Part shown: positions 40,245-45,692 of the stretch, one piece after another
How positions within the stretch are numbered: the first letter of the stretch is position 1
Layout: every line of letters begins with the position of its first letter
Origin: Vezdaea acicularis
Lineage: Eukaryota
Direction of reading: 5' to 3'
Assembly: GCA_026025075.1 (NCBI GenBank)
Contig: JAPEUI010000013.1
Location: 62,001 to 126,000, forward strand
Length of the DNA: 64,000 bases
The notes under the pieces: model-generated
The model's database searches: none
Seen by the model: the letters and a program-made list of their open reading frames with translations, nothing else
Told to the model about the DNA's origin: nothing
Made by a program: the position numbers and the translations under genes

Positions 40245-42456
40245 ATGGCCTCCAAGCGCAGCCGTGCCACCTACGAGGCGGACCTGCTCAGTCATCCGCC
40301 CCAGACCGCGGTTACTAAGGTAGCCTCGGAAGATCGAGGAGACTGGGATGAGGTGCCCGTATGGAAGCAGGAGGTTCTTGATGAGCAGGGGAGAAAGCGG
40401 CTGCACGGAGCTTTTACTGGGGGTTTCAGTGCTGGGTTCGTTATCAATATCAGATCTTCTGCTTCGACCGCCCAAGCTAACATCGGCTCGTAGGTATTAC
40501 AATACCGTGGGGTCGAAAGAGGGGTGGACCCCCTCGACCTTCATATCATCCAAGAAGAATCGTCAGAAGAAAGACAAAGAAGCAACTCACCAGCGCCCCG
40601 AAGACTTCATGGATGAAGAGGACCTGCAGGAGGCCGTCGAAGAACTAGAAAACACGGATATTTATGCCAGCCTGGGCTCGACTGAAGAGGAACTGAGGAG
40701 GAAGGCATTACTCAAGGCGGTTGGGGAAGTAGATGGTGATCAGAAGAAAGAGGATGGGATGCTACACATGAGCGCAGCGGACGCCACCCGCGCCATTGCA
40801 ATGGCCAGGCGAAACGGCCAAAAGGGACTTGGTTTCGGCAGTAAGGCGCGACCTTCAGCTAGCAACGGGTCTCCCCATACCACATCGACAGAAGCGGTAG
40901 GCAACGACCCTGCTGTCACGAGAAAACCTAGGAAGCCCATCTCACGGGGAGGTTTTGGAGTAGGGATTTTGAACGACACAGGATCCGATGACGAGAACCC
41001 CTATGAACTCCAGCCGAAAACGTCATTTAGAAAAGTAAAAAGCGAAAAGAAGAAGAAAAAGAAGATTACCTTTGGGGAATCGCCATCTCCTCCGCCAGAA
41101 TCGACGGCAGGGGTATCAGAGAAAAATAGTGCTTTAGAGATCAAATCTCCACCTGAGATGATTCCAGCAGCGCTGACCGGTTCTGCACAACAAACACGAC
41201 CGCCTTCACCTCCACCTCCGTCCTCGGCCAAACCCCCTTCAATCACCATCAACCCACATATTCCAAATAAAGAGCTCTCACCCTCCCCCAACCCCACCAC
41301 CCCAAAACTAAAAGGCCCCCAAAAATCCGTCTTCGCCTACCTCAACTCTTCAGCTCGCGCCCGCATCGCCGCCGCCACAGGCAAAACCGACCTCCCCATC
41401 GCTCTAAACGAGTCCGCTCCACCTCCATCCGCCCCAGCAACGCTCTCGCTCATTCCCACACTCCCTCCCAAAACCGCCGAGCAAGCCCTCGGCCGCGGCC
41501 TAGGCGGCTGGCTGCCCTACGCAGACGCGCCCGCCAAGCGTGCACGCTATACGGCTTACCTCGAGCACCAAGCGGGCTTGACGGACAAGCCCCCCGAGCG
41601 CGGGAGAGCGGTGAAACAGGACGAATGGGTGAGGGAGCTGGAGGAGTTTAAGAAGGCGGCTGAGATATTCAAGCCCATGGCGGGGATGATGGCAGAGCGC
41701 TTCGCGTCCGCTTCTGACTCCAGGCCGAAGGCCTCGGGCGCTGATAGCAAGGGCTTGGCTGGTACTGCGGATCCAAGTCCGCTCTTGAGTACTCCAAATG
41801 AGAAACTTGAGGACCCGGCAGAGGCGGCGGCGAGGATGGGCTTGTTCGGCCCGCGTACGAGGTCCATGCAGCCGTTCTATCCGAGCCGGCTGCTGTGTAA
41901 GCGCTTCAACGTGCCACCGCCCACCACTGTCGCACCGGCGCCGACGCCTTCCGAAGGTGTCGCTGGAGGGGGTCCGAGTGCGGCGGGAACTCAGAAGCCG
42001 CAGAGTAGGTTCACGAGTGGTGGCTTCATGACGGCGCAGGAGCCGCAAGGGAAAGCGGGGGAGTTGCTCGGAAAGGGCGTTATGGAGGAATTGGTTAAAG
42101 AGCGGGGCCGGGTCGAAGCTGGAGGGGTGGCGGAAACGGAGGAGGTGGTCAAGGTAAAGGAGGAGGGGGAGGGGGTTGGGCCTGAAGAGCAGGCGAGGAG
42201 AGACAGGCAGAGAAAGCTGGAGGAATGGGCGAGAGGCACAAGTACAGGGCGTGGGAAGAAACGGACGAAAAAGGAACGACCTCCGATGGTACAGGATAAA
42301 GAAGATGTGACGACATCTGGAAACCCCGTCCAGGCTGATACACCAGTTCTTAAGGCGCCGGAGGAAGTGCAGGAGATACCAGAGGAACCGCAAGAACGGC
42401 CCGGCGATGCGGTGTACAGGGCGGTCTTTGGCAGCGACAGCGAGGATGATAGCTAG
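40245..42456 (+). CDS. GPATCH1/TGH-like protein (DUF1604 N-terminus)
   Basis: Exons 40245-40435 and 40494-42456. [81 protein letters not shown]-terminal [12 protein letters not shown]. Confidence 0.88.
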
Positions 42457-43274
42457 CCCCCTCTCCCCCACATCTACTACAAATTTAAACCAATTTTCTG
42501 CAAATTGGTTAGTCGTATCCCCTCCTCCTTCACGAAGGTAGTTCGGTGTCGAAAGCGGGCTGTAATAGACTCCACGTGATGATCCTTCGGCCTCTTTCGC
42601 TCTGCCTCGTGCTACCCACCCAAAGGGGTGATCGTTGAAATTGCACACATCCCCATCATCAAAAGTAGAATCACATAAACGCTCAAACCCTGTACGTTTC
42701 CACCTAAGCCCTAGTCCCGAATATAAGAAAAATTCCAGAGAAACAAAACTCTGTGCAATGATTCCCCTTCCCCTCTTCCCCGCCTCTAAATATGGTATAC
42801 AAATTGTGATTGTGACTGTTCTACTATGGTCATTGGTGGTGTGGTGTTGAAGGTCGGGAATGTTTTATTATCTGAGATACACGAGTAGGTGCTTTATCAT
42901 ACCCAATTTGGGGGTCGTAGGAGGAAGGTGTGAGAAGGTGACAAAATTGAATAAAATGGCAGAGATGGCGATTATTGATTTCTGGGCTTCGAAATTACTT
43001 TGTAAGTGGGCAGGGGTGGGATGGTTGTGCTGGGTAGGATAGACTTTCACTTGCACTACACTTGCATAGCAGGATCTTCCCCAGGATTCAAGAACTCGTT
43101 CTTTTGATGCTGATAGCACTAGGAGGCCTGTTATCAAACCAGTAGATCTATGATGGGTTCAAGCCCAATCTCTCATCTAAGCCTATTCCACCCCTCCAAA
43201 AGCCTGTGGTAGGTTCACACACCCTGCCCTATGCAGTAAATCGCACTTCCCGTAAAATCATGCCTAGCTAGCCC

Positions 43275-43526
43275 TTACCACACGCAGGCCGCTTGGGCCC
43301 AGAAGTTTGGCACGGAAGTAGATTCTAGGCTGTCATGGATATCATCTTCATCGTCGTCCGCAGTGTCTGACTCCTCTTCCTCGTCAAGCAGCCCCGTTTT
43401 TCCCTGTCCCGCTTTCCCGCCACGGCCGCTGGATGATGAACTCAGAACGCCGTTGGAAGATGCATATGCTGGTGGAGGGAAGTTGTCGTTGTGGTGGTGG
43501 CGTGGAGTGCCTTTAGCTCTCTTCTT
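43275..43526 (-). other. Putative alternative terminal coding exon of RLI1 (distal 3' splice site, 83 aa + stop)
   Basis: A second acceptor TTTTTCCTAG lies 10 nt after the canonical one; the phase-0 frame stays open for 83 codons, ending in TAA at 43275-43277. Confidence 0.5.
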
Positions 43527-45692
43527 CTAGGAAAAACTAGATCTCGGCGATTAGCACGGGGATGGCCTTTCTTTACAAGATATCATATAGTTTGAGGAAT
43601 CAGCAAACTCACATAGTTCCCATTAAGCTTTTGCTCCTCGTCCTTCTGGGAATTCTGTTTATTGATGCGTGGGCGGAAGGAGTTCGGGTCCCGTCTGAAC
43701 GTGACGTCCAAGTTCTTCAGGAAGCGGTTGCAGCCGGTGAGTAGGCCTTCGGGAGCGTTGGCACGGGCTTTGATGGAAGGTTGACCGTCGAAGACGATCA
43801 CCCGGTCCGCGAGGTAAGTCGCCATTATAAAGTCGTGCTCAACTACGAAGGCAGTCTTTTTGGAGTGCATGATGAAGCGCTTGATGACGCGAGCGGCAAT
43901 TATACGTTGTTCAGAGTCGAGATAGCTGTTAAACCTTAGAGAAGAGCTTTGGGGGGGCGGGGAGGGCCGGGAGGGGGAAGGGTTTTGCAGGACTTACGCG
44001 CTGGGCTCGTCGATCAGGTAGATGTCTGCTGGTGTGCCGAGCGCGAGGACAATTGCAACACGCTGCAGTTCACCACCGGACAGGTTGAGAACCTCTTGGT
44101 CGATGAAGTCGTCCATCTTCAACGGCTTGTAGACGTCGGTCTGGAACTGCGGGCTCAAGAACATGCCTTTGATCTTTTTCAAGAAGAGCTGACGGACAGT
44201 ACCGGGGAACTTCGGGTTGATCTTCTGGGGCTTCATGCTAATATGCATCCTCGGCACCTTCTTGCCATTGTCTGGCTGTTCTGCACCAGCAAGCATTCGG
44301 CAGAAGGTTGTCTTGCCTGTCCCGTTCTCACCCATCATGACGATGATCTCGGAATCTGTGAAAGATCCCTCTTCAATGTTCAAGTAGAAGTCACCTAAAG
44401 TCTTAGACATGCTTGGGTATGAGAAGCCTTGCGACTTGTCGACGACATATTCGTCGCCAGCCTCAGCAATCCGGAACGTGAGAGACTCTTCTCGGAAGCG
44501 AAGATTCTCCGTTGGTATATTACCGTCCAAGAATATATTGATACCCTCTCGAACGGATGCAGGTAAGGTGACCACACCATAGACAGCAGGGCGACCGTAG
44601 AGGACGCAGATGAAGTCCGATAGATAGTCGAGAACCGACAGATCGTGCTCAACTACAATGACATAGTCATCAGGTCGAAGGAGCTCTCGGATAATTTTGG
44701 CCGCGTTAAGACGTTGCTTGACATCGAGGTAGGACGATGGCTCGTCGAACATGTAGACGTCCGCGTTCTGTACGCAAACAAACCCGATTGCAAATCTTTG
44801 GAGTTCTCCTCCTGAAAGCTTGTCTATGTCCCGGTCCATGACATGCTTAAGTTCCAAAACCTCACAAATGTGATCGAACTTATCGGTTTCAGCCTTGGCT
44901 TTGAGGAGGGCACCGACCGTACGGTCTGTGGCCTTGATTGCCTTAGGGATCTGATCCACATACTGCGGCTTCACTAACGCTTTCAAGTTGTCCTCAAGGA
45001 CTTTGGTAAAGTAGTTCTGGAGCTCCGACCCTCGGAAGTATTTGAGGATTTCCTCCCAATCAGGCGGGTTGTCATACCTTCCCAAGTTCGGCTTCAGCTT
45101 GCCGCTCAGTATCTTCAATGCAGTACTCTTGCCAATTCCGTTTGTTCCGACAAGCCCTAGCACCTGTCCAGGCCTTGGCATGGGCAGTCTATGCAACTTG
45201 AAAGAATTGGCCGAGTATCGATGGGTGATCTGCGTCTCGAGGTTGGTGGGGAGGTTGATGATAGTGATGGCCGAGAAAGGACATTTCTTTGGGCAGATAC
45301 CGCAGCCTATGCAAAGGCGCTCTGAAATGAAAGCGATCTTAGACTCGGGGGTGACTTCGATACAGAGCTTCCCTGTCCGTACGACAGGGCAGGATCGCTT
45401 GCATTCTTGCCGGCATTTCTGTGCAGCAAGTCAGCTAGGGAGGGTAAGGTCAAATATCGCAAGAGCATACCTTGGGCTTGCACTGAGTTTACATAGATCA
45501 AGTCAGCATTGAGCACTTCTAGGTGTGATTGTTGCGCTCGTGTGATGGTGGGGCAGTCAACCGAGGGCGCAAAAACATGAGCCATACCTTGTCCGAATTC
45601 ACGATAGCAATACTTAGACCGCCTTGTCAGTACTTTACGTCTGAGGGTTTACAGAGCGGACGGATGGCATACCGGGTCAGTTTGTCCGTCAT
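43513..45692 (-). CDS. RLI1: ABCE1 Fe-S ABC ATPase, ribosome recycling factor
   Basis: Exons 45692-45673, 45612-45588, 45482-45471 (12 nt), 45418-43998, 43925-43613, 43536-43513. [25 protein letters not shown] (Fe-S), [18 protein letters not shown], two LSGGELQR, end GNYFFLEEES. Confidence 0.97.

Follow-up and report, generated by a model that had tools for sequence, protein, structure and literature searches.

The RLI1 locus and the frame behind it

The DNA analysed here (the window) is a stretch of 64 000 nucleotides from Vezdaea acicularis (assembly GCA_026025075.1, contig JAPEUI010000013.1, positions 62,001 to 126,000). Our subject is an open reading frame (ORF) without a start codon, called the tail below, which lies directly behind RLI1, the gene for the ribosome-recycling factor Rli1/ABCE1, and which comparison with relatives leads us to regard with high confidence as real and conserved. 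The 478-amino-acid exon of the host gene matches the Pfam families ABC_tran (twice), Fer4_RLI and Fer4, and the predicted protein has the iron–sulphur (Fe–S) N-terminus, the two ABC domains and, when the last intron is removed at its proximal 3′ splice site, the GNY-FFLEEES C-terminus that identify it as Rli1/ABCE1. C-terminal ends of the form FFL[ED] are found in nearly all of 80 metagenome RLI1 loci. The 5′ end of the gene (45400-45692, reverse strand) seemingly consists of tiny exons (~20, 25 and 12 nt) and three short introns, placed by eye from the conserved N-terminus. Coordinates of all features are collected in Table 1.

A preliminary description, made from the letters of this DNA, had reported that the last RLI1 intron ends in two TAGs 10 nt apart behind a GCTAAT, and that the second of them opens a hidden C-terminus without a start codon. 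Both TAGs are present as described. The branch-point-like GCTAAT occupies 43555-43550 (reverse strand), with its branch A 14 nt from the proximal and 24 nt from the distal TAG. The exon that begins at 43536 reads FFLEEES up to the stop, and the exon from 43526 yields exactly the 83 stop-free residues quoted, with zero Met among them. If the last intron is left in place, translation meets a TGA after 9 codons (ORF 43583-43993). Two motifs singled out in that description fare less well: KKRAK, likened to a nuclear localization signal, overlaps the EEES codons of RLI1 and differs among relatives, and the conserved part of the tail ends before the aromatic terminal motif is reached.

By its length the frame is unremarkable, as 237 of the 4677 stop-to-stop frames in the window have at least 83 codons and the chance of 83 open codons at the stop frequency of the window is ~0.045. 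Codon usage was assessed by a log-odds score for which 12 long ORFs from the window served as the training set. The tail frame scored 0.209, compared with a mean of 0.187 (standard deviation 0.10, n = 97) for true coding chunks of 83 codons, and the remaining five frames at the tail scored negatively. When normalized for stops, the score of the tail was reached by 1 of 77 off-frame ORFs of similar length and ranked third against 166 other ORFs of 70–130 codons. Neither the tail nor its antisense frame has a family in Pfam; the PDB sequences returned low-complexity noise only (best E 0.17), and the ESM Atlas gave no usable match. A frame of 96 codons runs antisense to the tail (43240-43530, forward strand); it is Ser-rich opposite the acidic run, has no Met and has a negative codon score.

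Table 1. Features at the 3′ end of RLI1 in the window.
Feature	Position	Strand	Details
RLI1/ABCE1 gene	43513..45692	(-)	ATG 45692-45690, TAA 43515-43513; small 5′ exons, five introns by eye
Last RLI1 intron, 76 nt	43537..43612	(-)	Donor GTGAGT (TAT/GTGAGT, exon end 43613), proximal acceptor TAG 43539-43537
Canonical last coding segment FFLEEES	43516..43536	(-)	Followed by stop TAA 43515-43513
Distal TAG	43527..43529	(-)	TA of Leu CTA plus G of Glu GAA; also the upstream stop that closes the tail frame
Open tail frame, 83 codons	43278..43526	(-)	+1 relative to RLI1; no ATG; stop TAA 43277-43275
Conserved tail core, 62 codons (AKGTP...DDDEDDIHD)	43332..43517	(-)	Starts on the codon overlapping the RLI1 stop; alignment A1
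K-G-T-P, local form of the K-G-[IVT]-P start motif	43503..43514	(-)	AAA takes the last two bases of the stop TAA
Acidic tail end G-L-L-D-E-E...D-D-D-E-D-D-I	43338..43394	(-)	Alignment A1
Non-conserved run-on of the frame (HDSLESTSVPNFWAQAACVW)	43278..43337	(-)	Overlaps the region that is the helix 5′ arm in relatives
Weak candidate local helix	43143..43327	(-)	Arms TAGAATCTA (43327-43319) and TAGATCTA (43150-43143); pairing by eye and script

Occurrence and architecture of the tail

Relatives were recruited from metagenomes with the last large RLI1 exon (80 loci with L-numbers, identity 72–92%), which together with the window gives a set of 81 RLI1 loci. When the regions downstream of RLI1 were searched with the tail by tblastn, a check suggested in the preliminary description, 10 loci matched weakly, all on the same strand and directly 3′ of the RLI1 exon; the frame is homologous in these relatives. 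A pattern-based metagenome scan with the tail produced 593 pattern matches and 0 confirmed ones, the relatives being too diverged for exact peptide patterns. A profile hidden Markov model (HMM) of 43 distinct tail cores (alignment A1) was run on 7375 six-frame segments of at least 25 aa from the 81 sequences. Its 48 matches fell in 48 different loci, always on the strand of RLI1 and within an ORF in contact with the RLI1 stop, and no segment elsewhere matched; most of the matches are training sequences, and the test therefore speaks for specificity rather than discovery. The window tail, itself a training sequence, was matched with E = 2e-15. Of the 81 loci, 48 have a homologous ORF directly at the RLI1 stop. 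Among L001-L052, 49 loci have enough downstream sequence and 46 of these carry the tail; L025 has a diverged tail, and L048 and L050 have other C-termini. Yeast-type loci (ending in FFLDNTGI) and the more distant loci of the set have no tail. These comparisons indicate that the tail belongs to a large group of filamentous-ascomycete-like RLI1 genes.

The tail profile was also compared with 1.84 billion proteins. Ninety-eight cluster representatives were found at E ≤ 1e-3, all from assemblies and all either nameless or named 'hypothetical protein'; 96 are small ORF calls of 43–142 aa that span the whole profile. The other two (P0055, 572 aa, and P0076, 252 aa) are RLI1 models in which the last intron is retained, open and in phase. 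They are artificial RLI1–tail fusions in public assemblies, and the tail of P0055 is the nearest to that of the window. Searches for longer proteins containing the tail, made with the tail or its alignment, found none at E ≤ 0.01, but were weak, with candidates crowded by shared words. We found no description of a conserved ORF or RNA structure behind RLI1/ABCE1 in the literature searched, supplements excluded; the words ABCE1, RLI and RNase L inhibitor are absent from the fungal RNA-motif surveys PMC8216456 and PMC5640933, again outside their supplements, and ABCE1 is absent from the main text of PMC3840789.

The encoded peptide has ~45–90 residues and three parts. It opens with a K-G-[IVT]-P motif, 0–14 nt past the RLI1 stop, continues with a variable middle that is basic or Gly-rich, often with SGVLGV or AGVG plus K/R runs, and closes with an acidic end, G-L-(L/P)-D-E-E...E-D-D-D-(E/P)-D-(D/I). 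The stop of the ORF falls within 3 residues of the acidic tract in 22 of the 43 distinct tails. Between the core of the window and the other cores in A1, identity ranges from 19 to 49%. The acidic ...DDI end may resemble the C-terminus of eIF1A, DIDDI. Five distant, non-fungal-looking ABCE1 loci (L061, L065, L068, L069 and L079) have acidic ends in frame with ABCE1 itself, such as FFYDDPEDDTEVDEDDI or ...DDDDDL directly before the stop, which are similar to the end of the out-of-frame tail of the fungi. Such in-frame ends (...DEDDI) hint at a function that an acidic tail could have on ABCE1.

Evidence for coding selection

Substitutions were counted in frame-blind nucleotide alignments of 18 pairs of loci, with the 180 nt 3′ of the core as control. 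Mismatches at tail codon positions 1/2/3 numbered 187/162/374 in the core versus 215/209/202 downstream, and 26 of 61 gaps in the core were multiples of 3, compared with 27 of 136 downstream. The excess at the third position was reproduced in 20 disjoint pairs that used each locus once (227/238/392), position 3 being strictly the largest in 17 of the 20 (binomial p = 2.8e-6). Pairs of intron-less loci carry the same signature (5/1/16 for L006-L009, 9/9/22 for L014-L031). The corresponding control figures for the RLI1 exon are 175/84/819. The test of the ratio of non-synonymous to synonymous substitution rates (dN/dS) put forward in the preliminary description agrees with the third-position excess in the tail frame: NG86 estimates were 0.19–0.54 in 17 of 23 pairs with finite dS, values that protein-guided alignment biases downwards. 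The pattern indicates that the tail is under purifying selection, much weaker than that on Rli1, and supports the earlier claim of a hidden protein-like tail that ordinary ORF and gene calls miss.

Among the 43 distinct cores, the two remaining sense frames stay open in 0 and 2, and the antisense frames in 11, 18 and 19; the five frames average 1.0–6.1 stops per core, the cores having been chosen for an open tail frame. An antisense gene was considered as the source of the periodicity and rejected, with antisense frames open in 11–19 of 43 cores and the antisense frame of the window without Met and with a negative codon score. As antisense is open in only 19 of 43 relatives' cores, we take the 96-codon antisense frame of the window to be a mirror of the sense frame.

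It might still be argued that the frame is untranslated, either conserved as an RNA or DNA element of the 3′ untranslated region (3′UTR) or open by chance. The window contains many frames as long as this one, and conserved non-coding blocks and a covarying helix lie just downstream (see below). Codon periodicity, however, ends with the core: there is none in the next 180 nt, although a conserved block lies there. The openness of the frame in all 43 distinct cores carries a selection of its own, since the cores were chosen to be open, but 46 of the 49 eligible loci among L001-L052 have the tail, and its codon usage is coding-like. We regard an untranslated frame as very improbable indeed.

A proposed route into the tail: splicing

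The preliminary description had explained access to the tail by a regulated tandem-acceptor isoform, in which use of the distal TAG would fuse GNY to KKRAKGTP... and replace FFLEEES; the AAGs at +13 and +16 could serve likewise. The coding tail of this proposal has stood the comparison with relatives, but the second splice site has not done so as a general route, as tails occur in all three frames and in intron-less loci. Locally the arrangement is persuasive: two AGs lie behind one branch-point-like CTAAT, the distal one after a T-rich run, and L007 has the same TAG in the correct frame. Yet the distal site is not conserved where its product is. Among the 24 distinct tail loci that have the intron, 3 contain TAG +10, and in L026 it opens a frame other than that of the tail; the underlying YTA+G variant also occurs in L007, L011, L026, L036 and in distant loci. 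Of the 48 tail loci, 28 have the intron and 20 lack it, and coding selection is still seen where it is missing. Three of the 20 intron-less loci (L032, L049 and L051) are spliced transcripts from relatives that do have the intron; three introns present in the genomic relatives are missing from these contigs, which show the proximal junction only. Genomic tail loci without the intron number at least 7 (L009, L011, L012, L014, L020, L033 and L037), on contigs of 9.7–688 kb.

AGs in phase with the tail frame can be found in 22 of the 24 loci. This is trivial, since any NAG codon of the tail frame qualifies, and with intron-less loci in existence the in-phase AGs before K-G were rejected as a conserved acceptor. 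Intron retention was also rejected as a route: of the 24 distinct loci with the intron, 8 would be led into the tail frame by it, the third expected by chance, and in the window it stops after 9 codons. The position of the intron at the 3′ end of RLI1 differs among lineages, because in L050 (3312-3400) an intron lies four codons later (FFLE/GTATGT... rather than GNY/FFL); this locus has no tail. In view of the variation of the tail frame across loci (0, +1 or +2), we think it improbable that the distal acceptor is the way into the tail. At best, the tandem acceptor would be a local side route that gives a minor spliced isoform in this species, and that too we rate as improbable.

Frame geometry at the RLI1 stop

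Counted from the RLI1 stop, 7 loci (4 distinct sequences) have the tail in frame 0, 28, including the window, have it in frame +1, and 13 in frame +2. Related tails can be in different frames: L013 is +1, L022 is 0 and L010 is +2, and the cores of L007 (+1) and L002 (0) are 83% identical. The spacing between the stop and the conserved Gly is 0, 1, 2, 3, 4, 11 or 14 nt across loci, and we attribute the frame switches to small insertions and deletions (indels) within this interval. In the tail frame, stops lie a few nucleotides upstream, at −11 relative to the RLI1 stop in the window, L007 and L011, at −7 in L027 and at −4 in L010, while in frame-0 loci entry has to be directly at the stop. Together, these upstream stops and the frame-0 cases leave room for entry only within a few nucleotides on either side of the RLI1 stop. 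No ATG opens the tail frame, and in most relatives there is no Met ahead of the acidic tract. The tail also lies inside the mRNA, because the spliced transcript-like contigs L032, L049 and L051 carry it; they extend to ~1.2 kb past the last junction (L049 ~0.5 kb).

The last sense codon before the stop is AGT, AGC, TCG, TCT, TCC, GCC, GCT or AAC. It nearly always encodes Ser; the +1 loci mostly use AGT for it, whereas TCC or TCT prevails among the +2 loci. In each of the 41 loci of frames +1 and +2 the stop is followed by A. A purine after the stop constitutes a context of efficient termination.

A conventional downstream ORF with its own AUG was rejected, with zero Met in the 83-residue frame. 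The tail could nevertheless be translated independently of RLI1, either from a short transcript of its own or through internal initiation at a non-AUG codon. Independence from the RLI1 frame would be explained as well by this, in the +2 group the stop shares bases with a CTG (C CTG AAA GGC), and gene callers often report the ORF as a stand-alone small protein. Against this, no near-cognate start is conserved (the +1 group has GTT, CGT, CTT or GCT at that place), and in frame 0 the G-V-P-K begins on the codon next to the RLI1 stop, which leaves no room for a start. The constant abutment of the tail to the stop, within 0–14 nt, would also go unexplained. We consider independent translation very unlikely.

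Lineage-specific programmed recoding at a set low rate, which would yield an Rli1–tail fusion, has more in its favour. It would take the form of read-through in frame 0, of a +1 shift of the antizyme/prfB type in frame +1 and of a −1 or +2 shift in frame +2. The context of the stop is conserved (for most loci of frame +1 it is AGT TGA A[AG]AGGGC, for many of frame +2 TCC TGA A[AG]G), and the in-frame acidic ends (...DEDDI) of ABCE1 in the distant eukaryotes L061, L065, L068, L069 and L079 point to a possible function of an acidic tail on this protein. Autoregulation at a factor's own stop has precedent in RF2. Plant eRF1 is a further case (PMC5397192, as there summarized). However, every switch of frame would require a new device at once, yet related tails differ in frame. 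RNAalifold predicted 0 pairs in the 90 nt after the stop (19 sequences, stop −12 to +93), and the local fold of the window is ordinary (z = +0.28). The eight different last sense codons are not one slippery motif. No constitutive stop-less in-frame fusion was found in the searches for longer proteins, and the 2 long matches among the 98 are the intron read-through models. Such recoding is in our view unlikely.

Two single-device versions were rejected. A programmed read-through extension demands frame 0, which holds in 7 of 48 loci only; the window is +1, and its own frame 0 past the RLI1 stop closes after 42 codons of unrelated sequence. A programmed +1 frameshift of the antizyme/prfB type implies a fixed +1 relation, whereas frames 0/+1/+2 occur 7/28/13 times, and neither a conserved shift site nor a stimulatory structure was seen. 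What the loci do display, namely a conserved K-G motif 0–14 nt past the stop, an entry window that opens 4–11 nt ahead of it, no ATG and all three frames, agrees with the geometry outlined in PMC5972666 for reinitiation by post-termination 80S ribosomes, with a start ~10 nt from the stop, in any frame and with no AUG.

A conserved RNA helix behind the tail

In relatives, a long-range helix of 10 bp lies in the 3′UTR directly behind the tail (consensus GACGGCAGTC ... GACTGCCGTC), with loops of ~87–152 nt in clear cases. It pairs columns 45-55 of alignment A3 with columns 408-418 and encloses conserved blocks such as CTATCCCCTGTTGCCTGGTCCTAC and GGTAGATTGAGGGGCAATGGGTCAAG. Unaided, RNAalifold recovered 7 pairs of this helix, 6 of them with compensatory changes. 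For the 10-pair helix, 83.6% of cells are paired versus 75.6 ± 1.2 in shuffled alignments (0/500 as high), and 29 double changes are found versus 11.7 ± 2.6 (0/500); 9 of the 10 pairs covary. When the helix was slid along the alignment as a control, 18–60% of cells paired. Its 5′ arm starts 7–11 nt after the first base of the tail stop in L013, L028, L031, L035, L038 and L044. A ribosome that terminates on the tail would, given the size of its footprint, extend into the helix. No Rfam family matched the window between 42400 and 43700, nor L013, L038, L044 and L031. The fold of the corresponding region of the window (43143..43327) is not unusual (z = +1.0).

Further downstream, a convergent gene with a DUF1604 domain (E = 2.6e-18; 40324-42456, forward strand) ends ~1.06 kb from the RLI1 stop. 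Between the two genes lie the tail, the conserved blocks and, at 42550-43150, a stretch richer in AT (GC 0.42–0.46).

Discussion

The evidence from sequence comparison is best accounted for by termination-coupled, frame-independent entry, a mechanism that we hold to be the best supported and for which we see the case as evenly balanced. Ribosomes that have just completed Rli1 would enter the tail at the RLI1 stop, because entry into this AUG-less ORF has to occur there, in any frame and without splicing. Two routes are conceivable: unrecycled 80S ribosomes could reinitiate near the RLI1 stop, or ribosomes could read through it, with or without a change of frame. The product would accordingly be either a free peptide or an Rli1–tail fusion, and the tandem acceptor could add a minor spliced route in this species. 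According to the account of Young et al. (2015) in PMC5972666, depletion of Rli1 leaves 80S ribosomes behind on stop codons; they reinitiate less than ~10 nt from the main stop, in all three frames and with no AUG, to make small peptides; the same source asks what the purpose of such 3′UTR peptides may be. Knock-down of ABCE1 in human cells is described in PMC7544199 as raising both in- and out-of-frame read-through, with a +1 fused product detected. Since both routes are reported to rise when Rli1/ABCE1 is limiting, synthesis of the tail would be a read-out of Rli1 activity on its own mRNA. Tail output would report recycling capacity and perhaps feed back on it.

We tentatively suggest, with more doubt than confidence, that the RLI1 mRNA carries a recycling gauge, a conserved AUG-less ORF that would be read by the ribosomes that Rli1 failed to release. 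The acidic-ended peptide, or the arrival of ribosomes at the helix, would then adjust the expression of RLI1 or signal a shortage of recycling or of Fe–S clusters.

Several points weigh against entry by terminating ribosomes and such a gauge. Constraint on the peptide is modest, with a mean column identity of 21% in A1 and no invariant column, and the composition of the acidic run may account for part of it. As a purine follows the stop in 41 of 41 loci of frames +1 and +2, the tail may be expressed at a very low basal level, and purifying selection would then be hard to understand unless expression under stress is what matters. Each frame class may trace to few indels, so that the 'floating' of the frame rests on a limited number of independent switches, and we infer the frame-independent mechanism from comparative geometry only. 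Reinitiation of this kind has been described in budding yeast and human cells under depletion, and the loci of budding-yeast type in our set are tail-less. In the window, finally, the tail frame could be reached from each of TAG +10, AAG +13 and AAG +16, and a contribution of splicing is conceivable there.

Translation of 3′UTRs after failed recycling is well documented yet treated as noise. If the proposal is correct, the tail would be the first product of 3′UTR reinitiation with a selected function, and Rli1 would sense itself in a manner comparable to the autoregulation of RF2 and eRF1 but independent of frame. A selected AUG-less ORF at the recycling factor's own stop would be a natural experiment on the purpose of 3′UTR peptides. 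For annotation, the tail is a conserved small coding element that has been missed behind an essential gene; it surfaces as 'hypothetical protein' calls or as artefacts of intron read-through.

Comparison with known systems

The C-terminal tail of AMD1 is reportedly a conserved coding extension in the 3′UTR, in frame and 384 nt long, and is thought to act in cis at its end. Judging from what PMC13025110 gives of it, the AMD1 tail is like the RLI1 tail in being conserved 3′UTR coding sequence for ribosomes that pass the main stop. It is read in one fixed frame by read-through, whereas the RLI1 tail, as read from its sequence, floats between frames. Tandem 3′ splice sites of the NAGNAG kind are similar to the window in having two AGs, here 10 nt apart, behind one branch point, but differ in that the spacing in the window shifts the frame and the pair is not conserved in relatives.

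Autoregulation at a factor's own stop is another parallel to the proposed gauge. Bacterial prfB (RF2) regulates itself by a +1 frameshift at its own stop. Plant eRF1 is described in PMC5397192 as doing so by read-through combined with nonsense-mediated decay. The likeness lies in a factor's own activity deciding the fate of the ribosome at its own stop; in eRF1 (as far as PMC5397192 describes it) and in prfB there is one fixed recoding event and frame, and what lies downstream is the factor itself or non-coding, whereas RLI1 would have a separate, conserved tail peptide.

Nearest of all in mechanism are the consequences of limiting Rli1 or ABCE1. The ABCE1-limited read-through of PMC7544199 shares with the proposed reading of the RLI1 tail a frame-independent continuation past the stop; the data presented in the relevant parts of that source come from reporters and bulk 3′UTR footprints and include no conserved downstream coding sequence, whereas the RLI1 tail is conserved coding sequence. 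The 3′UTR reinitiation seen on depletion of Rli1 (Young et al., 2015, as related in PMC5972666) and the RLI1 tail have the same start geometry, any frame and no AUG. The yeast products are portrayed there as stochastic and purposeless, whereas the RLI1 tail would be one selected ORF on the mRNA of the recycling factor itself.

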